Positions 6,450 to 49,465 are shown, counted from the first letter of the stretch. The stretch is 49,465 bases of DNA from an uncultured Parcubacteria group bacterium (GCA_903944135.1 CAJAQL010000005.1:1-49465); one strand, 5' to 3'. The notes: a model not told the origin generated them from the sequence alone. Numbers and translations: made by a program.

Positions 6450-6478
6450 TTGCTTAAAATGGAAAATGGCATTATAAT
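6450..6478 (+). promoter_or_regulatory. promoter of rpmE (leaderless geometry)
   Basis: TTGCTT (6450-6455), 17-nt spacer, TATAAT (6473-6478), then 7 nt to ATG 6486. Confidence 0.55.
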
Positions 6479-6485
6479 AAGCCTT

Positions 6486-6737
6486 ATGAAAAAAGATATC
6501 CATCCGACCTATTTCCCTGAAGCAAAAGTGATCTGTGCTTGCGGCAATTCGTTTACCGTAGGGGCGACCAAGCCCGAGATCCGCGTTGAGATCTGCGCAA
6601 AGTGCCATCCGTTCTATACCGGCGAAGAGAAATTGCTCGACGTCGCAGGACGGGTCGAGAAGTTCAAGGCGCGCCGCGAAAAGGCATCCGCCACTCCGAA
6701 GAAGGTGAAGAAAGTGCGCGCGAAAAAAACAGAATAA
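6486..6737 (+). CDS. rpmE: 50S ribosomal protein L31 (Zn-binding type)
   Basis: [23 protein letters not shown]...[13 protein letters not shown]. The ORF opens at 6450 but the conserved N-terminus starts at 6486. Confidence 0.9.
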
Positions 6738-6751
6738 TCCTGAATCTGAAG

Positions 6752-6790
6752 AACGTCCTCAAGCATCCGATGCTCCGGGGGCGTTTTTTT
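6752..6790 (+). terminator. intrinsic terminator after rpmE
   Basis: AACGTCC...GGGCGTT stem enclosing the AGCATC/GATGCT palindrome, followed by a T7 run. Confidence 0.5.
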
Positions 6791-6804
6791 ATACCGGTTA
6801 TTTC

Positions 6805-6813
6805 TGCTATAAT
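6805..6813 (+). promoter_or_regulatory. extended -10 box 6 nt upstream of the pilB GTG
   Basis: TGcTATAAT, then gagaac, then GTG at 6820. Confidence 0.5.
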
Positions 6814-6819
6814 GAGAAC

Positions 6820-8541
6820 GTGAAACTTCCTATTTCTTCCGATCAGTTGAAGGCAGTGCTTATCTCCGAGGGGCTTGTGACGGCGGATGTTTTTGATCGT
6901 CTTTTGGAAGAGGCCCAGAGAAAGGGGCAGGACATCGTCGACGTCCTTGTCTCGAACCATATTGCCGAAAAGGGGTATCTCGACGATGCGGTGGCTAAAG
7001 CGCTTGGTGTTCCAAGGATCACGCTTGCGGCGAGTTCCATTGATAAGGACGTTTTGAAACTGCTCTCTGAGGGAGTTGCCCGCGATCGCCAGGCGGTGAT
7101 CTTTCGCCGCGAAGAGGATGGCACGTTCGATGTGGCCATGGCGAACCCTTCGGATCTTGAAACCATCGAATTTCTCACGACGCGCTTGAAGGCCCGCGTG
7201 AAACCGTTCCTTGCGACCCAGGATGATCTGAACCAGGGTTTTTCGGTGTATGGCTACGAGGTCGAGCAGGATTTCAAGAAGATCATCGAGGATAATATAC
7301 GGAACTCTCTCGCGAACCAGTTGGGAAAAAATATGACGGACGTGGCGTCCCAGCTTCCCGTGATGGGCGTGGTGGAAAATATTCTTTCCTATGCCATGGC
7401 GTCGCGCGCATCAGACATCCATATCGAAATACTTGAAGATGCCACGTTCATCCGTTATCGCATTGACGGCATTCTTTATGAAGTGATGTCGATCACAAAG
7501 GCGATCCATCCGGCGATCGTCGCGCGCATCAAGCTTCTCGCGGGACTGAAGATCGACGAGCACTACGCGCCGCAGGATGGGCGGTTCCGCTATCAGGTCG
7601 GCAATCAGACGATCGATATCCGTGTTTCCGTCATTCCTACGTTTTACGGCGAAAAAGTGGAAATGCGTCTTCTCGAATCATCGCAGAAGCCGTTGTCCCT
7701 CGAGGAGATCGGCATGTCGCCCGAGGCCGTGAAGGTCGTCTCGGAAAATCTCAAGAGATCCTACGGCATGATCTTATCCTGCGGTCCGACCGGTTCCGGA
7801 AAATCGACGACGCTATATGCTTTGATGAACATCCTGAACCGTCCGCAGGTCAATGTCACCACGATCGAAGACCCGATCGAATACAATATGCGCTATGTGA
7901 ACCAGACGCAGATCAATCCTCAGGCCGGCATCACGTTCGCTTCGGGTCTCCGTTCGCTCCTGCGTCAGGACCCGAACGTCATCATGGTCGGCGAGATCCG
8001 CGATGCGGAAACGGCTGATATCTCCGTGCAGGCGGCCCTCACCGGCCACTTGATCCTTTCGTCGCTCCACACGAACGATGCGCCGACCGCCGTGCCGCGC
8101 TTCTTCGATCTGAACGTGCCGCCGTATCTTGTCGCTTCCGTTTTGAGCTTGGTGGTCGCCCAACGTTTGGTGCGAAAGATCTGTCCCTCGTGCATCTATT
8201 CTTATGATGCCGATGAGCATATCGCTTCGGTCATCAAATCCCAGCGCCGCGAACTCGGCATTTCCGACGAAGAAAGCATCACTATCCCGAAAACATTCTA
8301 TCGCGGGAAAGGATGTTCCGTGTGCGGCATGACCGGCTATATCGGCCGCAGCGGTATCTTTGAGGTGCTTGAAGTGAACGATGAAGTGAAAAAAACGATT
8401 GACAGCGATCATTTCGACATCGATGAATTGCGTGCTGAAGCGCGCCGAAACGGCATGGTGACCATGTTCGAGGACGGACTTCGAAAAGTTGAGCTTGCCG
8501 AGACGACGATCGACGAGGTTCTCCGCGTGATCCGTGAATAA
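6820..8541 (+). CDS. pilB: type IV pilus assembly ATPase PilB (GspE family)
   Basis: T2SSE N-terminal-like region, Walker A GPTGSGKSTT, MVGEIRD, LTGHLILSSLHTND, and a CxxC...CxxC tetracysteine motif. Confidence 0.9.
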   Translation: MKLPISSDQLKAVLISEGLVTADVFDRLLEEAQRKGQDIVDVLVSNHIAEKGYLDDAVAKALGVPRITLAASSIDKDVLKLLSEGVARDRQAVIFRREEDGTFDVAMANPSDLETIEFLTTRLKARVKPFLATQDDLNQGFSVYGYEVEQDFKKIIEDNIRNSLANQLGKNMTDVASQLPVMGVVENILSYAMASRASDIHIEILEDATFIRYRIDGILYEVMSITKAIHPAIVARIKLLAGLKIDEHYAPQDGRFRYQVGNQTIDIRVSVIPTFYGEKVEMRLLESSQKPLSLEEIGMSPEAVKVVSENLKRSYGMILSCGPTGSGKSTTLYALMNILNRPQVNVTTIEDPIEYNMRYVNQTQINPQAGITFASGLRSLLRQDPNVIMVGEIRDAETADISVQAALTGHLILSSLHTNDAPTAVPRFFDLNVPPYLVASVLSLVVAQRLVRKICPSCIYSYDADEHIASVIKSQRRELGISDEESITIPKTFYRGKGCSVCGMTGYIGRSGIFEVLEVNDEVKKTIDSDHFDIDELRAEARRNGMVTMFEDGLRKVELAETTIDEVLRVIRE

Positions 8542-8543
8542 TA

Positions 8544-8599
8544 GAATCTATCTCAAAAAGTCCCCACGATATCCAGATGCCTGTTTTTGAGATAGGTTC
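8544..8599. repeat. inverted repeat of the CCTATCTCAAAAA family
   Basis: GAATCTATCTCAAAAA ... TTTTTGAGATAGGTTC flank 24 nt, directly after the pilB stop. Confidence 0.7.
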
Positions 8600-8664
8600 T
8601 AGTGTTATAATACTGAAGTATTCCGGAGTTACCTCGTTTGCAACATTAGAACGCTCATATATTT

Positions 8665-9879: not shown

Positions 9880-9881
9880 AC

Positions 9882-10391: not shown

Positions 10392-10430
10392 GCAATGACG
10401 AAAATTAATTTTAAAAATCTATTTCTTAAT

Positions 10431-10680
10431 CCGTCATTTCGAACGAAGCCTGCTTCGAGGTTTTCCGAGCGGCAAGGAATTCCTTTTTCTGTCGTCCCCG
10501 CCCCTCAACAGACTCGGGATAAACTCCGGCGGGGGATCCATGCTTCCGATCTTTTGCGTAAAGCACGGGTCCTTCAGCCAAGCCGGAGGATGACAGGAAT
10601 AAACATCGATTCCCGCTGGAACCTGTCTTCCGCACCCGCCCGTGCGGGTACAAGCTCCGGCCTACGCGGGGATGACGAGC
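10431..10680. repeat. cluster of GC-rich palindromic repeat units (degenerate type II plus extra hairpin units)
   Basis: Includes CTGTCGTCCCCGCC..CGGCGGGGGATCCATGCTTCC..AAAGCACGGG..GGAGGATGACAGG and CGCGGGGATGACGAG. The cluster lies inside the long ORF that opens at 10395. Confidence 0.75.
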
Positions 10681-14563: not shown

Positions 14564-15085
14564 TCAGTTCTTTGCCTTCACGAGCGCCGATGCAAGGGAT
14601 TGCTGGAAACCCTGGCTGGTTTGCGTTGCGCCGGAAACGACATCGACTTGCGCACTTTGCGACGAGATCGCTTCCTGGATCAGTTTCGGAAATGCGGCAT
14701 TGTTGATGCGTGCCGATGTGGCGCGGTCCTTCGGATAAACGAGGATCTTCACGTCGGTCAGCGCTCCGCTGCTCACGATGGCTGCGACCTGAACATTGCC
14801 GAAATAAGCGTTCACGGAATCGCCGTCATAGGAACCGTCTCGATAGAGTCCGGCGACCGTCGGGGTCGGGGCGGCGGACGCAGATTGCGCTCCGGCCGCG
14901 CTTGGTGCGGATGTCGTAGCGCTATTTTGCGCCACCGGCGGTGGCGTTGCTCCGTTTCCTGTAGTTGTACTGCCGCCATTATTATCAGGCGAACTCGAAA
15001 CGACCGAGATGGAATTTTGATTTTCGAGGAGCACGTAAAACGTGAACACGATGATAAGAAAGAAAGAAAGTAGATATTTTTTCAT
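14564..15085 (-). CDS. membrane-anchored FMN-binding domain protein (flavinylation-target type)
   Basis: N-terminal anchor MKKYLLSFFLIIVFTFYVLL, low-complexity linker, and the FMN_bind-like motif VDVVSGATQTSQGF. Confidence 0.75.
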   Translation of the reverse strand: MKKYLLSFFLIIVFTFYVLLENQNSISVVSSSPDNNGGSTTTGNGATPPPVAQNSATTSAPSAAGAQSASAAPTPTVAGLYRDGSYDGDSVNAYFGNVQVAAIVSSGALTDVKILVYPKDRATSARINNAAFPKLIQEAISSQSAQVDVVSGATQTSQGFQQSLASALVKAKN

Positions 15086-15092
15086 AGGGTTA

Positions 15093-15101
15093 ATTTTACC
15101 A
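15093..15101 (-). promoter_or_regulatory. extended -10 box 7 nt upstream of the FMN-binding gene ATG
   Basis: Minus strand reads TGgTAAAAT, taaccct, ATG. Confidence 0.5.
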
Positions 15102-15279: not shown

Positions 15280-15309
15280 TTGCATTTCGCGCCATTTCAG
15301 TATCATAAT
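15280..15309 (+). promoter_or_regulatory. promoter of the GH18 gene (leaderless geometry)
   Basis: TTGCAT, 18 nt, CATAAT, then 6 nt to ATG 15316. Confidence 0.45.
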
Positions 15310-15315
15310 GGAATC

Positions 15316-16566
15316 ATGGAAAAGCGTTTTATTTTCATCGTAATGCTTGCTATGTTTTTGGCGATCTTTGCCGTGCCTAAGTTTGCCGTGCCCGTTGATG
15401 CGTCCACAGCCAATGCGACATCGACCATCGCGCTTGCTTCGGCTTCGACCGCGAAATCCCAGCCGCTCAAGTATGGGGTGTGGCTTCCGTTCTGGAACGC
15501 GCAGGATGGCGCACAGGACGTTTCCTTGAATCTCGATAAGCTCAATGAGGTAAGCCCGTTTTCCTATGAGATCGGCACGGGCGGCAAGATCGTCGATGAT
15601 GCGAAGATCGATAACGGCAGCTGGGCTGGCTGGTTTTCCGCGGCTCACGCCCTTAATGTGAAGATCATCCCGACCATCGCGTGGTTCGACACGACGCCGA
15701 TGTACAATTTGCTTTCAAGCGCTAAAACACGTCAGGCGCAGGAGGATGCGATCGCGAAACTCGCAAAGACGCAGAAGTTCGACGGTATCGACATTGATTA
15801 CGAGAACAAGACGTATGCCATGAAACCGTATTACTCGCTTTTCATTGAAGGGCTTTCCGACCGTCTGCACGCGCAGAAGGAAACGCTGACCTGCACGATC
15901 ATGCCGCGTTCGCCCGCCGTGGATATTTGGGGAGCAAATCCGCCGACCCCTCTGCCGTATTCCGAGGATTATACGGTGCTCAATAAATATTGCGACGAAT
16001 TGCGCGTCATGGCGTATGACCAGGGAACGGTCGACCTTACGATGGACGCGGAGAAGGGCAGCAGTACGCTCTATTCGCCGATCGCCGATCCTGACTGGGT
16101 TTCGCGGGTGCTCGCAAACATGTTGAAATCGCTCGATCCCAAGAAGGTCATGCTTGGCATTCCGACCTACGGCTACGAATACCAGGTTTCCTGGAAGAAC
16201 GGCGTGACGACCTATCAAGAGGTGCGGAGTTTCACTTATCAGGAAGCCATGGATCGCGCCGATCTCGTGGGCGTCACGCCGATACGGGACAATGCCGACG
16301 AGCTGAGCTATACCTACCAGACGTCGACCTACGTTTCAGGGATTCCGGCGGTCCTCACGGCTTATGTCTCGTCGACGAAGCCCCAAATGCTTTCGCCGAT
16401 TACGACGCTTCCTAACAATGCGACGAATACTATGTTCGTTTCTTTCAGCGATGCCCAGGCGGCGCTCGATAAGATCGACCTTGCGAAGAAATACGGGCTC
16501 CGTGGCGTGATGTTCTTCAAGGCTGACGGCGAACTCGACCCCGCAACCTGGGACGATATACAATAA
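15316..16566 (+). CDS. secreted glycoside hydrolase family 18 (chitinase-like) protein
   Basis: Signal-like MEKRFIFIVMLAMFLAIFAVP and the GH18 catalytic motif FDGIDIDYE. Confidence 0.75.
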   Translation: MEKRFIFIVMLAMFLAIFAVPKFAVPVDASTANATSTIALASASTAKSQPLKYGVWLPFWNAQDGAQDVSLNLDKLNEVSPFSYEIGTGGKIVDDAKIDNGSWAGWFSAAHALNVKIIPTIAWFDTTPMYNLLSSAKTRQAQEDAIAKLAKTQKFDGIDIDYENKTYAMKPYYSLFIEGLSDRLHAQKETLTCTIMPRSPAVDIWGANPPTPLPYSEDYTVLNKYCDELRVMAYDQGTVDLTMDAEKGSSTLYSPIADPDWVSRVLANMLKSLDPKKVMLGIPTYGYEYQVSWKNGVTTYQEVRSFTYQEAMDRADLVGVTPIRDNADELSYTYQTSTYVSGIPAVLTAYVSSTKPQMLSPITTLPNNATNTMFVSFSDAQAALDKIDLAKKYGLRGVMFFKADGELDPATWDDIQ

Positions 16567-17780: not shown

Positions 17781-17789
17781 TGTTATTAT
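17781..17789 (+). promoter_or_regulatory. extended -10 box 6 nt upstream of the recO ATG
   Basis: TGtTATTAT, aacttc, ATG 17796. Confidence 0.45.
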
Positions 17790-17795
17790 AACTTC

Positions 17796-18296
17796 ATGGA
17801 AGAATACGTGACCGATGCGATCGTTTTGAAGAAGGAACCGTCAGGGGAGAGCGATATGCGCTACGCGCTTTTTTCTGAACGGTTCGGGAAGATCTCGGCG
17901 AAGGCGAAAAGCTCACGGCGCATCGTTTCGAAGCTCGCAGGGCATCTTGAACCGGGAACCGTGGCGAAAGTCCGGTTCATCGATAAAGGTTCCGCGCAGA
18001 TCGTGGATGCCCTGAAATCTTCGCGTGTCGATATTTCACCGGCAGATCTGAGGTTTTTGAACGATCTTTTGCCGGACCTGCAGGCCGATCCTGATCTTTG
18101 GATCCAGCTTACACGTCAGGCATTTTCATGGCGCGACATTCTTCGGACGCTTGGCTGGGATCCGCGCGGCGCGGTCTGTTCGCTCTGCGGTCGTAAAGCG
18201 ACATGGTTCTTCATTCCGCGCCAGGAATTCCTCTGCGATTCCTGTGTTTTAAAAATGGGGAAGAATAAGATATCATATATAAGAATAGAGGATTAA
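17796..18296 (+). CDS. recO: DNA repair protein RecO (short form)
   Basis: OB-fold N-terminus DAIVLKKEPSGESDMRYALFSERFGKISAKAKSSRR and zinc motif CSLCG...CDSC. The ORF opens at 17754, inside a repeat. Confidence 0.65.
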   Translation: MEEYVTDAIVLKKEPSGESDMRYALFSERFGKISAKAKSSRRIVSKLAGHLEPGTVAKVRFIDKGSAQIVDALKSSRVDISPADLRFLNDLLPDLQADPDLWIQLTRQAFSWRDILRTLGWDPRGAVCSLCGRKATWFFIPRQEFLCDSCVLKMGKNKISYIRIED

Positions 18297-24038: not shown

Positions 24039-24640
24039 TTCCTTCTCTCGAGCGCGGAGCCGAGGGTCTCGTCATCGGCGAACTCGATCTCGCCGCCGGT
24101 CGGCAGGCCGCGGCCGAGCCGACTCATTTTTTCGGTGAACGGCGCAAGCTCTTTCATGAGCGTTGCCGCCTGGAAATCGCCGAGCGAGCTCGGATTGAAT
24201 GCGAAGATGATCTCGCGCGCTTTGCCTTTTAAGTCCTGTTTGATGGTTTTTTTGAGACTCTCTATCCGGTCTCTCTGTCCGTTTTCGAGAAATCCGGTCT
24301 TTGGGATGGGGCCGGTGATGAAATAGCGGCCGGTGAATTTCTTGGTGTTTTCAAGAGAAATGAGATCGGTTTCTTTTTCGACGATCATAATGACGTTTTG
24401 ATTGCGGTTCGGGTTGCCGCAGATATCGCAAAGATCACCGGCGTTCTGGTGCGGGAAGAAGCAATGCTTGCAGATCTTCAGTCTGCGGAGGTTATTGATG
24501 TTCACGGCGAGTTTGTGGACATCCTCGGTCTTTTCTCCGATGAGATAAAAAGCAAGACGAATGGCCTGTCGGGGCCCGATGGATGGCAGATTCGACAGCT
24601 CGTCGGCAACGTTCTGGATCGGTTCGGGAAGCTTCATCAT
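24035..24640 (-). CDS. recR: recombination protein RecR
   Basis: LSNLPSIGPRQAIRLAFYL (HhH), zinc finger CKHCFF...CDICGNP, and a Toprim segment IMIVEKETDLISLE. Confidence 0.9.
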   Translation of the reverse strand: MMKLPEPIQNVADELSNLPSIGPRQAIRLAFYLIGEKTEDVHKLAVNINNLRRLKICKHCFFPHQNAGDLCDICGNPNRNQNVIMIVEKETDLISLENTKKFTGRYFITGPIPKTGFLENGQRDRIESLKKTIKQDLKGKAREIIFAFNPSSLGDFQAATLMKELAPFTEKMSRLGRGLPTGGEIEFADDETLGSALERRN

Positions 24641-24646
24641 GGGGTT

Positions 24647-24655
24647 ATTTTAGCA
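24647..24655 (-). promoter_or_regulatory. extended -10 box 6 nt upstream of the recR ATG
   Basis: Minus strand reads TGcTAAAAT, aacccc, ATG. Confidence 0.5.
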
Positions 24656-24663: not shown

Positions 24664-24780
24664 GCGTCATTCCGAGAGTGTTTAAATCGCGTCATCCTCG
24701 GGCCTGGCCCGAGGGACCCGTGCTTAAGGTTTAAGAAAAAGCAAAGAAGCACGGATACTCCGCCTTCGCGGAGGATGACG
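24664..24780. repeat. repeat locus (type III fragment plus type II)
   Basis: GCGTCATTCCGAGAG.., then GCGTCATCCTCGGGCCTGGCCCGAGGGACCCGTGCTT..GAAGCACGGATACTCCGCCTTCGCGGAGGATGACG. Confidence 0.85.
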
Positions 24781-24786
24781 TATAAT

Positions 24787-26232: not shown

Positions 26233-26241
26233 TGTTATACT
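26233..26241 (+). promoter_or_regulatory. extended -10 box 7 nt upstream of ATG 26249
   Basis: TGtTATACT, tcatctt, ATG. Confidence 0.45.
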
Positions 26242-26248
26242 TCATCTT

Positions 26249-26536
26249 ATGGATACCTTGATTCACGCCGATATTTTCTTTTTCGTGACGACGATTGCCG
26301 TGGTCATCATCACGATCGCCCTTACGGTCTTGATCGTTTATCTCGTGAAAGTTTTTCGGAATTTGCGGAAGATCACTGACGAGATCACGGAGGAAACAAT
26401 CCTTCTTCGAAAGGATATCGCCGATCTACGGAGTGAGATCCGTGAGCGGGGATCTCAGGCGGTGGGCGTCATGGACTGGTTTGGAAGGTTTTTTGGTAAA
26501 GCGAAGAAATCAAGGTCGAAAAAGAAATCTAATTAG
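26249..26536 (+). CDS. small membrane protein with a coiled-coil tail
   Basis: MDTLIHADIFFFVTTIAVVIITIALTVLIVYLV, then a charged helix. The ORF opens at 26204. Confidence 0.5.
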   Translation: MDTLIHADIFFFVTTIAVVIITIALTVLIVYLVKVFRNLRKITDEITEETILLRKDIADLRSEIRERGSQAVGVMDWFGRFFGKAKKSRSKKKSN

Positions 26537-31066: not shown

Positions 31067-31078
31067 GTTTTTATAATA

Positions 31079-31321
31079 TTATTTCGGCGCTTTCTTCATG
31101 AGTTTTCTTACGGATGCAAGATGTTTCATGAGATGGGATGCCATCGCTTCGAGCCGGGATGCCTTCATGATCATGATCGTATCATCGTGCGCGCTCATAA
31201 CGATGAGCTTTTCGCCTTTCATGAGCTTCATGGCGGCGCGTGCCTCTGCGGGGATGACGATCTGTCCCTTTTCGCCGACGGTCGCTATGCCGATGAATTT
31301 TTTCCGGCTTGACTTGTTCAT
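31079..31321 (-). CDS. AbrB/MazE/SpoVT-family DNA-binding protein
   Basis: ATVGEKGQIVIPAEARAAMKLMKGEKLIVM (SpoVT-AbrB swapped-hairpin motif). It is the first gene of the pump operon. Confidence 0.7.
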   Translation of the reverse strand: MNKSSRKKFIGIATVGEKGQIVIPAEARAAMKLMKGEKLIVMSAHDDTIMIMKASRLEAMASHLMKHLASVRKLMKKAPK

Positions 31322-31400
31322 GCTCAAACGATACCATAATGACAAAGGAATATCCAACAAGTAGGAAAAGTAGGAAAAGGAAATCTTGGTGATGTTCTTG

Positions 31401-34647: not shown

Positions 34648-34656
34648 TGCTACAAT
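34648..34656 (+). promoter_or_regulatory. extended -10 box 6 nt upstream of ATG 34663
   Basis: TGcTACAAT, aaccat, ATG. Confidence 0.5.
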
Positions 34657-34662
34657 AACCAT

Positions 34663-35952
34663 ATGTCTGCGACGATGTTACAAGGCATTTTTCAGGGCGT
34701 CCTGCAGAGCGTTCTTGTTGCGTGGAGCGAGGTATGGTGGATCGTCCTGCCGCTCGTCACCTTTTTTATTTTCTGGGATTTTTGGCTGGTCTATCTCCAT
34801 ATCCGGTTCGTGAAGGCGATTTCCTGGAAACTGCTTGAGGTCAAAATTCCTAAAAACGTCCTGAAAACGCCAAAGGCGATGGAGCAGATCTTCGCCGCGG
34901 CGCACGCCCCGTATTCCTACGGGATTTTGAAGTTCGATAAATACTGGAAAGGGAAAGAAGAATCATGGATGGCGTTCGAGCTGATCGCCCGCGCCGGCGA
35001 AAGCCATTTCTATATGCGATTGCCGAAAGAAATGCGTCACAATATGGAGGCCGCCGTCTACGGCCAGTATCCGGAAGCCGAGATCATGGAAGTTGATGAT
35101 TATCTCGATCATTTCCCCGAAGTTCTTCCTAATCAGGAGATAGATGTTTCGGGTTTCGAAGAAATTCTGCGCCACGAGAATTATCTCCCGATCCGGACCT
35201 ATCTCGAGTTCGAAGATCCGACCGAGGAACGGCGGCTCGACACGATTGCTCCGATCATGGAGATCATGGCGAAGCTCAGGGACGATGAGCAGTTATGGTA
35301 TCAATTGGTCGTCCGGCCAACCGGCGAAGATTTCAAAAAAGAAGGGGAGAAAAAAATAAATCAGATCATCGGTACGGAATCAAAGAACAAGTCGGGCGGT
35401 CTTTTTGCTGACTTCGGTCTTGGCGTCACGCTTGGCGAAGTGGTGCGCGCCCCTTTCGAACATCCTGGTTCCGCGGTGAAGAAGAAGGAAGAGGCGGCAA
35501 AGACGATGCGTTTCTTGATCACGCCAGGCGAGAAGGACATGACCGAGGCCATCGAAGAAAAGATATCGAAGATCGCATTCGAGGCGACGCCGCGCTTTCT
35601 TTATGTCACAAAACAGGGGAGTCCCGATCCAGGCGTGATCGCGGCAATTCATGGATTTATACGCCAGTTCAGCACGCAAAACTTGAATTCCTTGAGACCC
35701 GATGGCGCGACGACGACAGCGTCGTATTCCGTGCGCGGTATGTTCAAGGATACCCGCATCAGATGGCGAAAGCGCGCGATCTACGAAAGTTACCGCCACA
35801 TTTCTCCGGGTGAAAAAAAATCAGTTTTGAACATCGAAGAACTTGCCAGCATCTATCACTTCCCGAGTGCGGCGGTCTCGACGACCGAACTTGAAAAGAT
35901 CCCGTCGCGCAGAGGCAGTCCGCCGTCGGGCATTCCGACCATAGAAGATTAA
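34663..35952 (+). CDS. hypothetical membrane protein (N-terminal TM pair, large soluble domain)
   Basis: SVLVAWSEVWWIVLPLVTFFIFWDFWLVYL, then about 370 aa without a recognisable motif. It lies immediately upstream of the TraD-like ATPase. Confidence 0.6.
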   Translation: MSATMLQGIFQGVLQSVLVAWSEVWWIVLPLVTFFIFWDFWLVYLHIRFVKAISWKLLEVKIPKNVLKTPKAMEQIFAAAHAPYSYGILKFDKYWKGKEESWMAFELIARAGESHFYMRLPKEMRHNMEAAVYGQYPEAEIMEVDDYLDHFPEVLPNQEIDVSGFEEILRHENYLPIRTYLEFEDPTEERRLDTIAPIMEIMAKLRDDEQLWYQLVVRPTGEDFKKEGEKKINQIIGTESKNKSGGLFADFGLGVTLGEVVRAPFEHPGSAVKKKEEAAKTMRFLITPGEKDMTEAIEEKISKIAFEATPRFLYVTKQGSPDPGVIAAIHGFIRQFSTQNLNSLRPDGATTTASYSVRGMFKDTRIRWRKRAIYESYRHISPGEKKSVLNIEELASIYHFPSAAVSTTELEKIPSRRGSPPSGIPTIED

Positions 35953-36059: not shown

Positions 36060-36068
36060 TGTTATCAT
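36060..36068 (+). promoter_or_regulatory. extended -10 box 7 nt upstream of ATG 36076
   Basis: TGtTATCAT, tattcat, ATG. Confidence 0.45.
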
Positions 36069-36075
36069 TATTCAT

Positions 36076-38103
36076 ATGATGGACGACGACATGCAGGATC
36101 TTACCCCGCTCGGGGTTTATAATTTCCGCCATCAACAGAAGAAATTCGGCATCAAGCTCGACGACCGCCGCCGGCATATTTATGTTATCGGAAAGACCGG
36201 CGTCGGGAAGACGACGCTTCTCGAGAATATGGCGATCGCCGATATGCGATCAGGCAAGGGGCTTGCGTTCGTCGATCCGCACGGCGAATCAGCGGAAAAG
36301 CTGCTCGACTTCGTGCCGGAGAACCGCCTGGACGATGTGATCTATTTCGATCCATCTGATATGGAATTTCCGATCGCGTTCAATCCGATGGAGCAGGTCG
36401 GTACCGAGTACCGGCATTTGGTGGCGTCGGGGCTCATGGGAGTGTTCAAAAAGATCTGGGCCGACGCGTGGTCGGCGCGCATGCAATATATTTTGAACAA
36501 CACCCTGCTCGCACTCCTTGAAAATCCCGGCGCGACGCTTTTGGGGATCCTTCGCATGTTCTCGAACCAGGATTATCGGAAACAGGTCGTGGACAATCTG
36601 AAGGACCCGGTCATCAAAGCATTCTGGCAGGATGAATTTTCAAAATACAGCCAGCGATTCGAGACCGAAGCCTTGGCTGCAATTCAGAACAAAGTCGGCC
36701 AGTTCGTTTCGAATCCGCTGGTCAGGAACATTCTTGGCCAGCCTCATTCGTCGCTCAACATGCGCGACATCATGGATTCTGGGAAGATATTCATCTGCAA
36801 TCTCTCCAAAGGGAAGATCGGCGAGGATAATTCCGCGCTTCTCGGCGCCATGATCATCACGCGCATGCAGCTTGCCGCAATGTCGCGCGTCGATACGCCC
36901 GAGGACAAGCGCCGCGATTTTTTCCTGTACGTCGATGAATTCCAGAACTTCGCGACGGAATCCTTTGCGAACATCTTGTCTGAAGCTCGCAAGTACCGCC
37001 TGAGCCTGGTTCTCGCGCACCAGTATATCGGCCAGCTGATGACGGGCGACAGCACGTCGGTTCGCGATGCCGTGTTCGGCAATGTGGGTACGATCATTTC
37101 GTTCCGTGTGGGTGCAGCGGATGCTGAATATCTGGAACAGGAATTTATGCCGGAATTCCTGCAGAACGATTTCGTTAATCTATCGAAAGCGAATGTTTAT
37201 ATCAAACTGATGATCGACGGCGTCTCTTCGCGCCCGTTTTCCGCGGAGACCTTGCCGCCGCAGAAGATACCGCTCGAATCCTATCGCGATGTGATCATAA
37301 AAAATTCCCGCGAGCATTACGGTACGCCGAAGAGCGTCGTTGAAACGCAGATCGCGAGCGAATGGCGCTCCGGTCCGGGCAATGTATCCGCAACAAGACC
37401 CGAACGGCAGCAAGAGAAGCGATTGTCCGAGGTGCTCGGTCCCGGCGCCCGCCAAAGAAAAGCGTCCGATGTGCGCAATGTCCGCGACGTGGAGCCTCGA
37501 CCCACGGTGGCGTTGAGGGCAGCGGTCCCGGTCGTTCAGACGGAGAAAGATCCGGTGCCGGAAAAAACCGCAGGGGATGATCCTCGTGCCAATATCGATC
37601 AGCCTTCCAAAAAAGTCATGCATCCGAACGTCGACATCGACGCCCTGAAGCAAGCCATCCATCATTCGCTAGAAGCTCGTTCAAAGAACACGGGATCTGT
37701 TTCCGCGCAAACGGCAACAGGAAGTGCTCGCGCGGAAAACACCCGTATCGTCCGAGTTCCCGTAAGCGAAACGCCCCCCGAAGAACCAGGACAGAAAAAA
37801 GAAGAGGAACTTCAGGGCGGTATGATGCATCTTTCCGATCTTTCAAAATTGCCGCCAAAAGAAAAACATGGCATCGTTACGCATAACGATGACCGCGAAA
37901 AGGGTGACCACGAAGAAGAGACTGATACCAATCAGAGCCATGATGCCAAGTCCGCAGCTATTGCATCGTCCGAAGACGAAGACCCGAATGCTTCGAATGA
38001 TGCATCACGCACGACTCAACAAAACAATTCCGGTTCAAAGATCGACATCAGCGCACTGAGAGAAGCAATTGGTGAAATCCAGAAGAAACGGCATGCCAAG
38101 TGA
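36076..38103 (+). CDS. TraD/VirD4/TrwB-like coupling-protein-type ATPase, no TM anchor, about 230 aa disordered C-terminal tail
   Basis: Walker A IGKTGVGKTT, FVDPHGE, Walker B-like FFLYVDEFQNF, ARKYRLSLVLAHQ. The tail is rich in E/K/S/T/P with two (V/I)DIxALxxAI motifs. Confidence 0.7.
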   Translation: MMDDDMQDLTPLGVYNFRHQQKKFGIKLDDRRRHIYVIGKTGVGKTTLLENMAIADMRSGKGLAFVDPHGESAEKLLDFVPENRLDDVIYFDPSDMEFPIAFNPMEQVGTEYRHLVASGLMGVFKKIWADAWSARMQYILNNTLLALLENPGATLLGILRMFSNQDYRKQVVDNLKDPVIKAFWQDEFSKYSQRFETEALAAIQNKVGQFVSNPLVRNILGQPHSSLNMRDIMDSGKIFICNLSKGKIGEDNSALLGAMIITRMQLAAMSRVDTPEDKRRDFFLYVDEFQNFATESFANILSEARKYRLSLVLAHQYIGQLMTGDSTSVRDAVFGNVGTIISFRVGAADAEYLEQEFMPEFLQNDFVNLSKANVYIKLMIDGVSSRPFSAETLPPQKIPLESYRDVIIKNSREHYGTPKSVVETQIASEWRSGPGNVSATRPERQQEKRLSEVLGPGARQRKASDVRNVRDVEPRPTVALRAAVPVVQTEKDPVPEKTAGDDPRANIDQPSKKVMHPNVDIDALKQAIHHSLEARSKNTGSVSAQTATGSARAENTRIVRVPVSETPPEEPGQKKEEELQGGMMHLSDLSKLPPKEKHGIVTHNDDREKGDHEEETDTNQSHDAKSAAIASSEDEDPNASNDASRTTQQNNSGSKIDISALREAIGEIQKKRHAK

Positions 38104-43262: not shown

Positions 43263-43742
43263 TTATGCGGCAATCTGCTCCTTCGCTGAGTTGGCCCCTG
43301 GTTCGGGGGTGGCGGAAAGCATCACGGCAAGAGTATCCATGTAATCGCGCCAATGAATTATTTTGCGATCTTCAATGGTGATGATGGAGCAAAAATGGTT
43401 ATGGTAATCCTTTCCCGTGGAAGGAACCGTCCCGTGCACCTCGTATTCCAGAATGATAACGTTTTTGGGTTGCGCTGATTTATATATCCGTAAATGATCG
43501 GCTGAGTGAATGACGTTGGTATAACCTTCGAACCAGTCCATGTATGCTTGACGCCCCTCGATTTTATTGGTGAATCCAGGAAAGTCGTACTGAAACTCAA
43601 AGACGGCATTTTCGGCTACGGCATCCCAGAAATGCCCTCCGTCAACCTCGCCGTTCAATCCCTTCATGATGATACGGTAAAACGGTTCGGCATTTTTATT
43701 AAACGCGGGATAACTTCCGTTGGTTCTCTCTTTCTTATCCAT
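43263..43742 (-). CDS. SnoaL/NTF2-like fold protein
   Basis: Size and pattern (HFWDAVAENAVFEF...IEGRQAYMDWF...EYEVHGTV...FCSIITIEDRKIIHWRDYMD) fit the NTF2-like cone fold. TAAAAT lies 7 nt upstream of the ATG. Confidence 0.6.
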   Translation of the reverse strand: MDKKERTNGSYPAFNKNAEPFYRIIMKGLNGEVDGGHFWDAVAENAVFEFQYDFPGFTNKIEGRQAYMDWFEGYTNVIHSADHLRIYKSAQPKNVIILEYEVHGTVPSTGKDYHNHFCSIITIEDRKIIHWRDYMDTLAVMLSATPEPGANSAKEQIAA

Positions 43743-43771
43743 GGTGCTAATTTTATATCAAATCAGCGCTG

Positions 43772-43868: not shown

Positions 43869-43897
43869 ATTGTATGAGGATTTTTAAGATAAGGCAA
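43869..43897 (-). promoter_or_regulatory. promoter of tRNA-Ser
   Basis: Minus strand reads TTGCCT, 17 nt, TACAAT, then 9 nt to tRNA position 1. Confidence 0.55.
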
Positions 43898-44037
43898 ATT
43901 GTAATGATTCCTCGCCCCTCAAAAATCCTTGGAGCAGGCTCCGCTCGGGATGATGGTGATTTTTTAGTTAAACTTCACCATTAAATTTTTCTTAAAGAAC
44001 ATTTTGAGATCAGATTTTTATTTGATAGAACGGATAG

Positions 44038-45162
44038 ATGAAAAATAAAATAATTGTATTTGCCGCGATGGCGGCGATGATCATTGCGGGATGCGGGGCG
44101 ATGCCGGTGCGGATCGGCGCGGCGTACCGATTTTCCAATTTTAAAGGGAAACCGCCGATTCATATAAAAACTTCGGGAGGGAAATCTCCGTCGGGCATTA
44201 CGCCAAGCAAGATAAAGAAAATATATAATCTGCCGGCGACGGGCGGCGGGGGAACGATCGCGATCATTGACGCATATGATGATGCGACCATCGAAAAGGA
44301 TCTTGGTATCTTTGATGGTGCTTATGATCTTCCGGCGTGCACTGCGAAGAACGGATGTCTCGAGAAGCATCTCATGGCCACATCGACAAAAACGGACAGC
44401 GGCTGGGCGCTTGAGACGTCGCTTGATGTCGAATGGGCGCATGCCATGGCGCCGCAGGCGAAGATATTACTGGTCGAAGCACAAACGCCGAGTGGCGCGA
44501 ACCTGCTTTCGGCGATCGATTACGCGGCTAGCCGCAAAGATGTTGTATCTGTTTCGATGAGCTGGGGCGGAGATGAATTTTCGGATGAGCTATCTTACGA
44601 TTCGCATTTCATGGGAAAATATGGCGCAGTATTCTTTGCTTCATCCGGAGATAATGGTGCGGGTGTGAGCTGGCCGGCGGTGTCGCCGTCGGTCATCGGT
44701 GTCGGCGGTACGTCGCTCGCGTTAACGGCTTCTGGAACATTGGTTTCGGAAGCGGCATGGTCGGGGAGCGGCGGCGGCGTGAGTGCTTATGAGGTTCAGC
44801 CGGATTATCAAAAAACGTATGCCGTGCCCAGGGCGAAGGGCATGCGCGCCGTGCCGGATGTCTCATATGATGCCGACCCGGCTTCGGGGTATGCCGTCTA
44901 TAAGACGACCGGTTCTTCGAAGAACGGCTGGTATACGGTTGGCGGCACGAGCGCCGGTGCGCCTCAGTGGGCCGCGGTTTACGCGCTCGGACATTCAGCC
45001 ACGCTTGCAAACATGTACGCCGACAAGGCATCGTCCAGCACGCTCAAATTCTTCAGGGACATCGCCAGTGGATCGAACGGAACATGCAAATATTATTGCG
45101 ATGCACGGAAGCGTTACGATTACGTGACTGGACTTGGCAGTCCGCAGACGGTGAATTTCTGA
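44038..45162 (+). CDS. S53 (sedolisin/kumamolisin-like) serine peptidase, probable lipoprotein
   Basis: Lipobox-like AAMIIAGC, IAIIDAYD, ETSLDVEWAHAMAP, and the catalytic GGTSAGAPQWAA. Confidence 0.75.
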   Translation: MKNKIIVFAAMAAMIIAGCGAMPVRIGAAYRFSNFKGKPPIHIKTSGGKSPSGITPSKIKKIYNLPATGGGGTIAIIDAYDDATIEKDLGIFDGAYDLPACTAKNGCLEKHLMATSTKTDSGWALETSLDVEWAHAMAPQAKILLVEAQTPSGANLLSAIDYAASRKDVVSVSMSWGGDEFSDELSYDSHFMGKYGAVFFASSGDNGAGVSWPAVSPSVIGVGGTSLALTASGTLVSEAAWSGSGGGVSAYEVQPDYQKTYAVPRAKGMRAVPDVSYDADPASGYAVYKTTGSSKNGWYTVGGTSAGAPQWAAVYALGHSATLANMYADKASSSTLKFFRDIASGSNGTCKYYCDARKRYDYVTGLGSPQTVNF

Positions 45163-45282: not shown

Positions 45283-45291
45283 TGTTATAAT
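45283..45291 (+). promoter_or_regulatory. extended -10 box 6 nt upstream of ATG 45298
   Basis: TGtTATAAT, gggtat, ATG. Confidence 0.5.
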
Positions 45292-45297
45292 GGGTAT

Positions 45298-46023
45298 ATG
45301 AAGATCGAATGGAACAAGGTGACATGGTATTCGAAGCTCCTGGCGCTCATACTTTTTGTTGTGTTGCCATTCGCCGGATTTTACTTTGGTGTTCGATATG
45401 GCGTCGCACAGCAACGTGCGGCAAATATCCTCTCCGATTCAAAAAATACTCCATCGTCAGCGTCGATAACATTATCACAGAACGAAGATGCCTATTATGA
45501 AAATGTCTCCGCGTGGCAGACCGACCAAAATAATAGCGGATGGAGCATCGCGTATCCACTCGACTTTTCGGTCAATGACAATCATTCGGCATCAACGACC
45601 GATGACTGGTCGATGAACGCATTCGGTACGGTGGGCCTCAAGGCTTTCGAACTCGATATTCCAAAGATGTTTGAGCCGCAGACGAATTTTGCCGATGCGA
45701 AATTGACGGTCGGGCGAAGTGGCGATGCTATGGCCGTCAAGGAATGTTTGTCGCCAGGCACGGAAGGATCGACATCGTTTGCGGCGACCACGATCAATGG
45801 GATTGATTTTCTGAAAGCGACATCCTCCGATGCGGGTGCGGGGAATTATTATGAGACAACGAGTTACCGCACGCTCCATGCCGGGCAATGCTATGCGATC
45901 GAATATACGATCCATTCGTCGCAGATCGGGAATTATCCTCCGGAATATCAACTGAAGCCATTTGATAAAACAAAATTGACCGACGTGCTTGATCGGATAG
46001 TGGGGACATTCAAGTTCGAATGA
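45298..46023 (+). CDS. membrane-anchored hypothetical protein
   Basis: MKIEWNKVTWYSKLLALILFVVLPFAGFYFGV anchor and an extracytoplasmic domain with no recognisable motif. Confidence 0.55.
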   Translation: MKIEWNKVTWYSKLLALILFVVLPFAGFYFGVRYGVAQQRAANILSDSKNTPSSASITLSQNEDAYYENVSAWQTDQNNSGWSIAYPLDFSVNDNHSASTTDDWSMNAFGTVGLKAFELDIPKMFEPQTNFADAKLTVGRSGDAMAVKECLSPGTEGSTSFAATTINGIDFLKATSSDAGAGNYYETTSYRTLHAGQCYAIEYTIHSSQIGNYPPEYQLKPFDKTKLTDVLDRIVGTFKFE

Positions 46024-46796: not shown

Positions 46797-46870
46797 TGTC
46801 ATCCCGTTGAAAAACGGGATCCAGATTTGAAGAAGAAAAAACTGGGTTCCCGCCTGCGCGGGAACGACAA
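46797..46870. repeat. GC-rich palindromic repeat, type I
   Basis: CTGTCATCCCGTTGAAAAACGGGATCCAG..CTGGGTTCCCGCCTGCGCGGGAACGACAA. Confidence 0.85.
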
Positions 46871-46916
46871 TGATATAAGGATAAGAAGGGAAGAGGATGT
46901 TTTTGAAAATCGTTCC

Positions 46917-46925
46917 TGTTATACT
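46917..46925 (+). promoter_or_regulatory. extended -10 box 7 nt upstream of the second pilB ATG
   Basis: TGtTATACT, gtaatca, ATG 46933. Confidence 0.5.
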
Positions 46926-46932
46926 GTAATCA

Positions 46933-48612
46933 ATGACCGATGCACCGAAAGGGCAAGATGATCTTCATTCGCAGCTCGCGAAGATCCGGCGTGCCGGCGA
47001 GGAGCGCGCGGCGGAGCGTCTTGCGGAAAAATTAGGATATCCTTATGCCGACCTCTCCAAAATGCCGGTTTCTTTGGATGCCGTTCGTACGATCCCTGAG
47101 GCTGATGCGCGCGACGGGAAGATATCCGCCATCGAGGTACGCGACAAGAAGATCGCTGTCGTCGCAGTGAATCCGATCTTGCCCGCAACCATGAAGGCGC
47201 TCAATGATCTTGCCGCACAGAAGTACGAGACGAAAGTCTTCGTGGTGTCGCCATCAAGCCTGGAGGCGGCATTTGCCCTATATAAGTTCGTGAAGCCGCC
47301 GACGGAGTCCGTTGCGGGTAAAGTCGCCATTTCAAAGAATCGTCTCGAAGAGTTAACGGGCCAGCTCGTGACGCTTGAAGCCATCCATACTACGATCATG
47401 AATCTGGACTTTACGAAAGCTTCACCGAGCGATCTTATCCAGATATTGTTCGCGGGAGCGCTTGCGGTCCATGCGTCTGATATTCACACTGAAGCAGGGG
47501 AAAAGCAGGCAAAGATCCGTTTCCGCGTGGATGGCCTTTTGCATGATATCTGCGATCTTCCGCTTCCGTTCTATGCCAATTTCGTCTCACGCGTGAAATT
47601 GCTTTCGGAGATGAAAATCAATGTCCGGAACGAAGCGCAGGACGGGCGCTTCACGATCAATCTTGCTGGCAAGGATATCGAAATGCGCGTTTCGGTCATT
47701 CCGGCGGAGTTCGGCGAAACGATCGTCATGCGTGTTCTTGATCCGTCGGCTACGATGGTCGGTTTGCCGAGCCTTGGTTTGCGCACCGACAATCTCGTGA
47801 TCGTAAAGAGGGCGCTCGACCGGCCGAATGGCCTTATTTTAAACACTGGCCCGACGGGCTCCGGCAAAACGACGACGCTCTACGCATTTCTTCGTTCCGT
47901 GAACAGTCCGGAGATGAAGATCATCACGCTTGAAGATCCGATCGAATACCGCATCGAGGGCATTGAACAGACCCAAGTGGATGAGGAGGCGGGATACACG
48001 TTCGCGAACGGCCTTCGCGCCATCGTCCGGCAGGATCCTGACGTGATCCTCGTCGGCGAAATCCGCGATCTCGAAACGGCTGATATTGCCATGCAATCGG
48101 CTTTGACCGGACATCTCGTGCTCTCGACGCTCCATACGAACGACGCGGTCGGTGCCGTACCGCGGCTCATCAATCTTGGCGTGAAAGCGGTTTCGATCGG
48201 GCCGGCATTGGCGCTCGTGATCGCCCAGAGGCTGGTTCGCGTGCTATGCCCCGAGTGTAAAAAGGAAGTACCTATCGATGACGCAATGAACGAAAAAATA
48301 AAAGCATTGCTTGCCCGTTTGCCTGCGCAGGTCGACAAAACGCTCTATGAGCATCCGACGTTTTTCGCTCCGGTCGGTTGCCCTAAATGCAACGGCATTG
48401 GTTATAAAGGGCGCGTTGGTATTTTTGAATTTCTGGAAGGCGGTCCCGATCTTGAAACTACGATACTTCATGAGGCGTCCGAAGTTGCGCTCCGCGAAGT
48501 GGCGAAACGACAGGGGATGGTCTCGATGCAGGAAGACGGAATCCTAAAGGCGATCGAAGGAAAGACGACGCTCGATGAAGTAAAGGATGCGACCGGTGAG
48601 CTTGCGTGGTGA
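46933..48612 (+). CDS. pilB: second PilB/GspE-family pilus assembly ATPase (diverged paralogue)
   Basis: GPTGSGKTTT, LVGEIRD, LTGHLVLSTLHTND, CPECK...CPKCNG, and an N-terminal T2SSE_N-like region. Confidence 0.9.
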   Translation: MTDAPKGQDDLHSQLAKIRRAGEERAAERLAEKLGYPYADLSKMPVSLDAVRTIPEADARDGKISAIEVRDKKIAVVAVNPILPATMKALNDLAAQKYETKVFVVSPSSLEAAFALYKFVKPPTESVAGKVAISKNRLEELTGQLVTLEAIHTTIMNLDFTKASPSDLIQILFAGALAVHASDIHTEAGEKQAKIRFRVDGLLHDICDLPLPFYANFVSRVKLLSEMKINVRNEAQDGRFTINLAGKDIEMRVSVIPAEFGETIVMRVLDPSATMVGLPSLGLRTDNLVIVKRALDRPNGLILNTGPTGSGKTTTLYAFLRSVNSPEMKIITLEDPIEYRIEGIEQTQVDEEAGYTFANGLRAIVRQDPDVILVGEIRDLETADIAMQSALTGHLVLSTLHTNDAVGAVPRLINLGVKAVSIGPALALVIAQRLVRVLCPECKKEVPIDDAMNEKIKALLARLPAQVDKTLYEHPTFFAPVGCPKCNGIGYKGRVGIFEFLEGGPDLETTILHEASEVALREVAKRQGMVSMQEDGILKAIEGKTTLDEVKDATGELAW

Positions 48613-48707
48613 TCTTTTCTCTCGTCCCGGTGCATGAGACATGTCCCTTTTTTATCCTGAAACTTGCCTAAAGAAGCTGTTCCTTGGGTAAGTTTTTCTT
48701 GTCATAG

Positions 48708-48716
48708 TGATATAAT
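48708..48716 (+). promoter_or_regulatory. extended -10 box 6 nt upstream of ATG 48723
   Basis: TGaTATAAT, ttctcc, ATG. Confidence 0.5.
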
Positions 48717-48722
48717 TTCTCC

Positions 48723-49465
48723 ATGTATCATCGTTTTTCTCACGAGGCTTTCACCCTGATCGATCCCCGTCTTCACGGGGATGACAAGAGGTTTCAAGGC
48801 TTCACCTTGATTGAATTGTTGATCGTGATCGCCATCATCGCCATCCTCAGTATCGTCGTCGTCCTCACCCTCAACCCCGCAGAGATGCTCCGTCAGGGCA
48901 GGGACAGCAACCGCTCCTCTGATCTCGATACCCTGACCCATGCCTTATCCCTCTATCAGACGGACCAATCGGTAACGAGCGGATCGGGTTCCCTCGGCTC
49001 ATCCACCCTCATCTATCTCTCCCTGCCGGACAGCTCAAGCACCTGCGGCTCCTGGAATCTCCCGTCTCCTCCCGCGGGCTACAGCTATCAGTGCGCTCCC
49101 ACGAGTTCCTACCGGAATACGAATGGTCAGGGCTGGATCCCCGTGAACCTCGCTTCCACGACGACCGGGAATCCTCTGGGCCAGCTTCCGATAGATCCCA
49201 CGAATGCCTCTTCCTCCGGCCTCTATTACGCCTATACGACGAACGGCATCCAGTATGAGGTCACGTCCCTCTACGAATCAAGCAAATACAAGGCATCATC
49301 AGCCCAGAATCCAACGATTCCTTCCTATCCCGAGGTCAACGCCAAAGGATCAAATCTTGCCCTGAATCCGCTCTTCAGTTCCCAGGGACTTGTCGGTTAT
49401 TGGCCTCTCGATGAAGGCAATGGATCTACGACCCAGGATCTGTCGGGCAACGGGAATACGGGAAC
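48723..49465 (+). CDS. LamG-type large pilin, paralogue of 10590-11936 (partial; runs off the window)
   Basis: Not in the ORF track because there is no stop in the window. My translation: MYHRFSHEAFTLIDPRLHGDDKRFQG|FTLIELLIVIAIIAILSIVVVLTLNPAEMLRQGRDS...GYSYQC...GLVGYWPLDEGNGSTTQDLSGNGNTG, collinear with the 10590 gene. Confidence 0.75.
   Translation, partial: MYHRFSHEAFTLIDPRLHGDDKRFQGFTLIELLIVIAIIAILSIVVVLTLNPAEMLRQGRDSNRSSDLDTLTHALSLYQTDQSVTSGSGSLGSSTLIYLSLPDSSSTCGSWNLPSPPAGYSYQCAPTSSYRNTNGQGWIPVNLASTTTGNPLGQLPIDPTNASSSGLYYAYTTNGIQYEVTSLYESSKYKASSAQNPTIPSYPEVNAKGSNLALNPLFSSQGLVGYWPLDEGNGSTTQDLSGNGNTG
48755..48788 (+). repeat. single repeat hairpin unit inside the pilin leader-peptide coding region
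   Basis: CTGATCGATCCCCGTCTTCACGGGGATGACAAG, translated as LIDPRLHGDDK. Confidence 0.7.

Follow-up and report, generated by a model that had tools for sequence, protein, structure and literature searches.

In a stretch of DNA from an uncultured Parcubacteria group bacterium—the window, 49,465 nucleotides (nt) long and analysed as a whole (GCA_903944135.1 CAJAQL010000005.1:1-49465)—promoter-like -10 boxes are locked at a distance of 6 or 7 nt to the start codons of the genes that follow them. The positional lock itself is confirmed as an observation. Its interpretation by extended -10 promoters of the leaderless type, which would give messenger RNAs (mRNAs) starting at or next to the start codon, is very probable as judged from the sequence. 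Support for this interpretation is statistical and comparative and comes from several independent lines. It covers the native part of the window, i.e., the part outside bases 1-6200.

A preliminary description of this DNA had listed 17 gene starts with such a hexamer, 12 of them preceded by TGn. On re-reading the sequence, all 17 sites were found at the coordinates and spacings given there—the spacer being the number of nt between hexamer and start codon—and TGn is present at 12 of the 17. The hexamer itself asks for a restriction: canonical TANNNT is found at 15 sites (nine with spacer 6 and six with spacer 7; 11 of the 15 bear TGn), while the CATAAT of the GH18 gene and the TAGAAC at 44038 are non-canonical. 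The sites are listed here together with two boxes in front of tRNA genes; "pipeline" refers to the start codon called by the annotation pipeline, and "coding-potential start" to our own motif-blind call described below.

6470..6488, + strand: rpmE (bL31), catTATAAT, spacer 7, ATG 6486; start backed by solved bL31 chains
6805..6822, + strand: pilB1 (T2SSE ATPase), TGcTATAAT, spacer 6, GTG 6820; pipeline start identical
15083..15101, - strand: FMN_bind gene, TGgTAAAAT, spacer 7, ATG 15085; pipeline start identical, N-terminus signal-peptide-like
15298..15318, + strand: GH18 gene, canonical TATCAT at spacer 9, CATAAT at spacer 6 non-canonical, ATG 15316
17781..17798, + strand: recO, TGtTATTAT, spacer 6, ATG 17796; backed by orthologues, pipeline start 17754 in a hairpin repeat
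24638..24655, - strand: recR, TGcTAAAAT, spacer 6, ATG 24640; backed by orthologues
24778..24795, + strand: DUF763 gene, acgTATAAT, spacer 6, ATG 24793; backed by orthologues, pipeline start 24775 in a repeat
26233..26251, + strand: DUF948 gene, TGtTATACT, spacer 7, ATG 26249; pipeline start 26204
31064..31081, - strand: macA-like gene (YknX/RND adaptor), TATTAT, spacer 6, ATG 31066; pipeline start identical
31319..31336, - strand: abrB/mazE-like gene, TGgTATCGT, spacer 6, ATG 31321; pipeline start identical
34648..34665, + strand: DUF8128 gene, TGcTACAAT, spacer 6, ATG 34663; coding-potential start agrees, pipeline start 34675
36060..36078, + strand: VirD4/TraG-like coupling protein, TGtTATCAT, spacer 7, ATG 36076; coding-potential start agrees, pipeline start 36025
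43740..43758, - strand: SnoaL_2 gene, TAAAAT, spacer 7, ATG 43742; directly after tRNA-Ser
44023..44040, + strand: lipoprotein-like gene, TGaTAGAAC, spacer 6, ATG 44038; box non-canonical, weakly supported
45283..45300, + strand: hypothetical gene, TGtTATAAT, spacer 6, ATG 45298; coding-potential start agrees, upstream ATG 45250 in a hairpin repeat
46917..46935, + strand: pilB2 (T2SSE ATPase), TGtTATACT, spacer 7, ATG 46933; in-frame stop one codon upstream
48708..48725, + strand: prepilin (N_methyl), TGaTATAAT, spacer 6, ATG 48723; alternative in-frame ATG 48780 in a hairpin repeat
6342..6347, - strand: box TACAAT upstream of tRNA-Ala, 12 nt before the tRNA 5' end; TTTGCA 17 nt upstream
43869..43874, - strand: box TACAAT upstream of tRNA-Ser, 10 nt before the tRNA 5' end

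The box of the macA-like gene sits within the 3' end of the upstream abrB/mazE gene. For the GH18 gene, the canonical box at spacer 9 makes an mRNA leader of 2-3 nt likely. The gene at 44038-45162 had been labelled S53, for which no Pfam support was found; its start is secure, with a stop codon directly upstream and a lipobox in the N-terminus, i.e., a lipoprotein-type signal peptide.

By its RecR relatives, the source of the window is a bacterium of the Parcubacteria, within the Candidate Phyla Radiation (CPR) or Patescibacteria. RecR (24035-24640, - strand) finds its nearest relatives in metagenome-assembled genomes labelled Parcubacteria, Paceibacterota, Minisyncoccia or Liptonbacteria, with identities of 96%, 92%, and 86% for the top three and about 72% and lower for the next. 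The same RecR search provided a comparison set of 80 related loci, each of at most 20 kb, whose main RecR cluster comprises 59 loci with 855 genes; several samples yielded assemblies of the same contig as the window. Of the loci named below, L004 corresponds to CAYUBE010000003.1, L003 to CAZWWZ010000050.1, L062 to JAHFLL010000001.1, and L049 to MHLC01000022.1. Motif-blind starts were set from coding potential only by our own small codon-usage gene finder. This gene finder is crude, and the gene fractions given below are hence approximate.

The extended motif TGNTANNNT occurs 59 times in the window, and eight of these copies end 6 or 7 nt before an ATG or GTG that opens at least 100 codons, compared with 0.73 expected (binomial P = 6.9e-7). 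TATAAT takes the same position before the starts of long open reading frames (ORFs) four times, with 0.36 expected. Seen from the ATGs that open at least 100 codons, TGNTANNNT lies 6 or 7 nt upstream seven times, and at most twice at each of the other spacers between 0 and 40. With the coding-potential starts, it is found at spacer 6-7 in 8 of 40 genes and at no other spacer from 0 to 25; TANNNT is found there in 11 of 40. The loose TANNNT alone, of which the window holds 1032 copies, is weakly enriched at starts (21 vs 12.75; P = 0.02). An unbiased enrichment of hexamers by offset returned TATAAT, TAAAAT, TGGTAT, TGCTAT, and TGTTAA in the expected register and no word resembling a Shine-Dalgarno (SD) sequence.

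The peak recurs in the 80 related loci, where TGNTANNNT precedes long-ORF ATGs 86 times at spacer 6 and 34 times at spacer 7, compared with about four times per other spacer, and TATAAT does so 48 and 47 times, compared with about three. Within the main cluster, 30% of genes show TANNNT at spacer 6 or 7 of a candidate start and 7% at control spacers; the excess of start-adjacent boxes amounts to about 23% of all genes in this clade. The positional enrichment that the preliminary description had put forward as a check, a TANNNT peak at -12..-7, is present both in the window and in the 80 loci, with spacer 6 preferred over spacer 7. The arrangement had also been called widespread. This stands for about 16 of the 41 native genes (some 40%, and roughly half of the genes that come first in a unit) and does not extend to about 15 further genes, which bear neither box nor SD.

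The logo of the spacer-6 sites displays T at -17, TG at -15/-14 (in 58% of these sites), and TAtAAT at -12..-7; position -1 is occupied by a pyrimidine, and +1 by the A of ATG. Across 88 extended -10 sites, position -1 is C or T in 84%, and the start codon is ATG in 82 cases, GTG in six, and TTG in none. A pyrimidine at -1 followed by A at +1 is the usual context of transcription initiation; spacer 6 would make the A of the start codon the initiating nucleotide. The best match to a -35 element at the 88 sites is no better than at random positions. A scan for classical promoters of two hexamers, -35 and -10, gave 17 matches in comparison with 15.7 in shuffled sequences, none of them with TG; this class was rejected, and the promoters would accordingly not belong to it. 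In the clade loci, variants in which T-12 or T-7 is replaced show no enrichment at spacer 6-7. The combination of strict T-12/A-11/T-7, an optional TG, no -35 element, and Y-1/R+1 is that of a predicted sigma-70 extended -10 promoter together with its initiating nucleotide.

Two further properties concern where the box stands. In related loci, boxes lie 8-16 nt upstream of several tRNA genes—a small sample—as they do in the window (12 and 10 nt), and since the box precedes tRNA genes, it would be a promoter and not a purely translational signal. It is also found at 32-40% of divergent or spaced genes compared with 15-20% of the genes within 10 nt of an upstream gene on the same strand, both shares being above the controls of 1-8%.

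The near absence of SD motifs that had been described for this DNA is borne out. GGAG, GAGG, or AGGA occurs in -17..-5 at 1 of 41 curated native starts, compared with two to three in equal windows shifted upstream, and SD position histograms show no peak in the window. In the main cluster, SD-like tetramers precede 21% of starts vs 19% in the control, i.e., there is no signal, and clade genes that lack a box show no enrichment of G upstream either. A group of sister loci (L056, L062, L065, L075, L067, and L070; also L049) reaches 36% vs 16% in the control and bears few start-adjacent boxes. Hence, the SD test is able to detect SD motifs where they are present, and the distribution suggests that lineages of the Parcubacteria have switched between SD-led and leaderless initiation. 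The rplK-rplA-rplJ-nusG cluster, looked for as a test for uL1, gave no match in the related loci.

Because of poor synteny, orthologues could be compared for about half of the 17 sites. RecR keeps a conserved N-terminus, M(M)KLP, and TANNNT lies at spacer 6 or 7 in 24 of 78 recR loci, serving the first Met in 10 loci and the second Met in 14; the box has hence shifted by three bases together with the start. In 23 of the 53 box-less recR loci, a long upstream ORF ends at most 15 nt before recR, which accordingly is operon-internal there. RecO orthologues keep MEEYV behind TGtTATGAT (L004) and TGaTATGAT (L045), both at spacer 6. DUF763 orthologues (70-95% identity) start with M(I)QRG and have TATACT, TATAAT, TGTATAAT, or again TATAAT 6 nt upstream; the spacer is 6 in L004, L045, L057, and L043, 8 in L044, and 9 in L038. 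An apparently conserved "YN" in front of this Met is the TATAAT box translated in frame. In L004 and L045, the DUF948 gene has the same MDTL start, which follows TGcTATAAT with a spacer of 8; the abrB/mazE-like gene has TGaTATAGT at spacer 7 in L045, and the TATCAT arrangement of the GH18 gene at spacer 9 is conserved in L004. No usable orthologues for a comparison of boxes were found for rpmE, the DUF8128 gene, the SnoaL gene, and the genes at 44038 and 45298; pilB1, pilB2, the VirD4-like gene, and the pilin gene have orthologue matches among the related loci, from which no box comparison was obtained.

The same comparisons bear on gene starts. In an alignment of bL31, residue 1 of more than 25 solved chains corresponds to residue 10 of the longer pipeline protein, and ATG 6486 is therefore the true start of rpmE. 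Of 12 comparable genes, six have a pipeline start other than the box-defined one; homologues were consulted for three of these—rpmE, recO, and DUF763—and bore out the box-defined start each time. The proposed use of the geometry, to correct starts extended artificially through repeats, holds for these three genes, and it is plausible that it also corrects the starts of the DUF948 gene and of the genes at 34663, 36076, and 45298.

Several other explanations for the start-adjacent boxes were weighed. The pattern might reflect chance, together with a reader who picks those ATGs that happen to follow a TANNNT, and the loose hexamer is indeed common and by itself weakly enriched. The extended motif (P = 7e-7), the peak obtained with motif-blind starts, its recurrence in 80 other genomes, and the retention of the box in orthologues refute this explanation, to which we assign virtually no probability. 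An alternative that is very unlikely accepts the boxes as real promoters but holds that many adjacent ATGs are not true starts, so that translation would begin at a downstream ATG and the annotated N-terminus would be leader. The pilin at 48723 could be cited for it, as its in-frame ATG 48780 would give a classical short prepilin leader, and so could the disagreement of pipeline and box-defined starts in half of the comparable genes. Yet, the conserved N-termini of bL31, RecR, RecO, and DUF763 begin with the box-adjacent Met, signal-peptide-like N-termini begin at the claimed Met, coding-potential starts mostly agree with the box-adjacent ones, and ATG is strongly preferred at exactly spacer 6.

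Two more alternatives deny that the boxes are promoters. TAtAAT at -12..-7 might be a new ribosome-binding signal, read by an altered 16S rRNA 3' tail or a ribosomal protein on leadered mRNAs that come from promoters farther upstream. A spacing of 6-7 nt is like that between SD and AUG, the box is also found at some genes that abut an upstream gene (15-20%), and relatives are reported to lack CCUCC. The motif equals the sigma-70 extended -10 element in every detail, though—TG, T-17, T-12/A-11/T-7, and Y-1/A+1; it precedes tRNA genes at promoter distance, occurs at tight junctions about half as often as at divergent or spaced genes, and is gone where recR is operon-internal, and no other promoter-like signal is enriched upstream. 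We consider a ribosome-binding role improbable to a high degree and strongly favour the putative promoter. No more credible is that the boxes are a by-product of selection for an A/T-rich, unstructured region upstream of the start, as in the SD-independent initiation of Bacteroidetes. Box-less genes do show a mild enrichment of A at -3 and -9 and a depletion of G near the start, and a sigma-like gene has a G-free stretch of 29 nt upstream (33493-33521). This explanation leaves the fixed register, the invariant T-A---T, G-14, and the boxes upstream of tRNAs unexplained, and variants with one mismatch, AANNNT and the TANNNA type among them, show no enrichment at spacer 6-7 when compared with TANNNT.

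The reading by leaderless-type promoters has to face several points of its own that weigh against it. About 15 of the 41 native genes lack both an SD and a box at leaderless distance, and leaderless initiation thus does not account for everything. The box at 15-20% of the genes within 10 nt of an upstream gene occurs beyond the obvious first cistrons. The boxes of the FMN_bind and macA-like genes are not kept in L045. Two of the 17 sites are non-canonical, the CATAAT of the GH18 gene lacking T-12 and the TGaTAGAAC at 44038 lacking T-7; clade-wide, CANNNT is found 10 and 6 times at spacers 6 and 7 (background 10.8) and TANNNC 9 and 3 times (background 10.4). Since these variants are not enriched, both boxes are unsupported as a class, and they were dropped as -10 boxes at spacer 6. 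Finally, no 16S rRNA 3' end was found in the window or the 80 loci, either at Rfam gathering thresholds or with the regular expression AAGTCGTAACAAGGTA at up to two mismatches.

With leaderless-type promoters, initiation might proceed as follows. The housekeeping RNA polymerase holoenzyme would use the extended -10 element T-n-TG-n-TAtAAT with no need for a -35 element. In about 40% of genes, a spacer of 6 nt, or more rarely of 7 nt, separates the box from the start codon. Transcription would begin at the A of the ATG or one base earlier and give an mRNA with neither 5' leader nor SD, and a ribosome carrying initiator tRNA might bind the 5'-terminal AUG directly. Downstream operon genes at -4 to +6 nt from their neighbour would most likely be translated by termination-reinitiation, and some genes, such as the sigma-like gene at 33522 and the pilin at 16845, might have short G-poor leaders.

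Genes that lack a start-adjacent box fall into several arrangements. Five are tightly coupled and begin -4 to +6 nt from their neighbour (9882, 20337, 24035, 38989, and 41109). In front of the pilin at 16845, TGgTATACT is located at a distance of 23 nt. In front of the sigma-70_r4/HARE-HTH gene at 33522, TATAGT and TACAAT are located about 30-37 nt upstream, followed by 29 nt without G (33493-33521), a candidate for an unstructured and SD-free leader. Others, e.g., those at 8665, 28559, 29401, 31509, 38226, 42119, 43140, and 46073, show neither box nor SD nor tight coupling, and many of the genes without box and SD have a hairpin repeat 0-16 nt upstream. When about 20 box-less genes were searched for other in-frame starts preceded by a box, a few doubtful internal matches were all that emerged. 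A tRNA synthetase gene called at 20542-21924 has a second in-frame start at ATG 20575 (MEKIVSLCRRRGF...), from which the N-terminus presumably resembles the conserved one of glycyl-tRNA synthetase.

The hairpin repeats just mentioned form an intergenic family that extends from 10566 to 48788. A copy consists approximately of AAGCACGGAT, a GC-rich stem, a loop of 4-8 nt, the stem again, and AYGACAGAAAA; the window holds 20 strict copies, compared with 0.8 in shuffled sequences. The stems vary between copies and stay complementary. Copies occur in both orientations, many of them paired head to head or tail to tail in the interval from a stop codon to the promoter that follows, and are also present in the close relatives L003, L045, and L018; examples are found at 17679-17715, 18362-18398, 27220-27256, 28605-28641, 29452-29488, 45221-45257, and 46835-46871. 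No Rfam family matches the repeat, which could be a terminator, an element like repetitive extragenic palindromes or miniature inverted-repeat transposable elements, or a processing site. That the repeats ending in ATGAC mark RNA processing sites which release internal cistrons with a 5'-terminal AUG—for instance at the macB and ABC ATPase starts, 28559 and 29401—is a speculative idea of very low probability.

The ATGAC edge of the repeat supplies in-frame ATGs, and the pipeline took them as starts for recO (17754) and DUF763 (24775). The pipeline starts at 26204, 28559, 29401, and 10590 are probably repeat-borne ATGs as well; the start at 18313 lies inside a repeat in reverse orientation, and 45250 is a repeat-borne in-frame ATG outside the pipeline's contig. 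In the prepilin ORF, a hairpin repeat is located between ATG 48723 and the G-F-T-L-I-E-L motif (48798), and from ATG 48780 the leader would comprise about five residues before the Gly. Two longer duplications were observed. One is an exact duplicate of 54 nt, 28550-28603 and 29392-29445, which includes the called starts (ATGACAAAAA) of the ABC ATPase and macB genes of the same operon. The other comprises 76 nt, with 17687-17762 upstream of recO equal to 18370-18445 inside the called 5' end of the next gene, after which another ATG GAA GAA TA (MEEY) is found at 18478.

Bases 1-6200 stand apart from the remainder of the window by a GC content of 39-42% vs about 52%. This block encodes two serine recombinases (one at 4775-6169), a D12 DNA methyltransferase (1637-2497), and a LOOT RNA (RF03000; 3809-3924, - strand), adjoins tRNA-Ala (6255-6329), and probably represents a mobile element that has integrated. 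In front of its recombinase gene, TAAAAT is found 6 nt upstream of ATG 4775. By its gene content, the window encodes a type IV pilus/competence and conjugation-like apparatus: it holds the DUF8128 gene together with the VirD4-like coupling protein, comEC, two pilB ATPases, and several prepilins (34663-38103; 6820-11936; 46933-49465).

Start-adjacent -10 boxes have been described in other bacteria. In Deinococcus-Thermus (D. deserti, D. radiodurans, and T. thermophilus), about 30% or more of the ORFs have TANNNT a constant few nt before their start; 60% of the mRNAs of D. deserti are leaderless, and mutation showed the Deinococcus motif to be the promoter -10 element of leaderless mRNAs, which was also used to correct starts (PMC4007540, PMC12340547). 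The clade of the window has the same TANNNT-adjacent architecture, known here from the sequence alone. It differs from Deinococcus, which bears a clear GGAG ribosome-binding site on its other genes whereas no SD signal is detectable in the window, and also by the frequent TGn, by a -35 region at random level, and by being a CPR bacterium with a reduced genome.

In Actinobacteria, the leaderless share is about a quarter. In M. tuberculosis, M. smegmatis, Streptomyces, and Corynebacterium, transcription of a sizeable share of genes starts directly on the first base of the start codon, A or G, and TANNNT occupies -12..-7 (PMC3898074). Actinobacteria differ from the window clade in keeping the anti-SD, in SD motifs on most leadered genes, and in the common use of GTG in leaderless ones, whereas the clade has ATG at 82 of 88 sites and no SD. 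Extended -10 promoters with TGn or TRTGn are familiar from E. coli and Gram-positive bacteria, where they make the -35 element dispensable and usually produce leadered mRNAs. The TG one base upstream of the hexamer and T-17 are shared with them (the TRTG comparison being drawn from general knowledge); the lock to the start codon is what sets the window clade apart.

Closest in phylogeny are Parcubacteria that reportedly lack the anti-SD. The anti-SD motif has been detected in no more than 48% of Parcubacteria genomes, overlapping with the group that lacks uL1 (PMC9297842), and Wolfebacteria and Campbellbacteria are listed among SD-scarce groups that have no CCUCC (PMC10783764). These genomes belong to the same phylogenetic neighbourhood as the window clade, which likewise shows no SD signal. 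Both papers (PMC9297842, PMC10783764) report missing parts and not a replacement, and neither contains a start-adjacent -10 box. No open-access paper was found that ties leaderless mRNAs or a start-adjacent -10 box to CPR, Patescibacteria, or Parcubacteria. The mechanism is known, and its dominance together with a total absence of SD in a CPR lineage appears to be unreported.

The arrangement fills the gap left by the anti-SD papers—what replaces SD-led initiation—with a concrete and testable answer. It also has practical consequences. Standard gene callers misplace starts in these genomes, an error for which the -10 geometry is a simple remedy; across CPR genomes, of which there are thousands, the calls of N-termini, signal peptides, and small proteins may be affected. 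Such wider errors are possible because the pipeline start differed in 6 of 12 genes and the box-defined start held in each of the three that were checked. The minimal promoter TnTGnTAtAAT-6-ATG could serve for expression in, or from, these uncultured bacteria.

As the clade stands beside sisters that retain SD motifs, it provides a natural system for the switch between SD-led and leaderless initiation with reduced ribosomes. Only tentatively, and with somewhat more doubt than confidence, we propose that SD/anti-SD pairing may have been abandoned throughout the clade, with first cistrons leaderless by default and other cistrons translated through reinitiation or from G-poor leaders—a change that might be linked to the reported losses of anti-SD and uL1. 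If true, translation in this bacterial lineage would be initiated essentially as in archaea or mitochondria.

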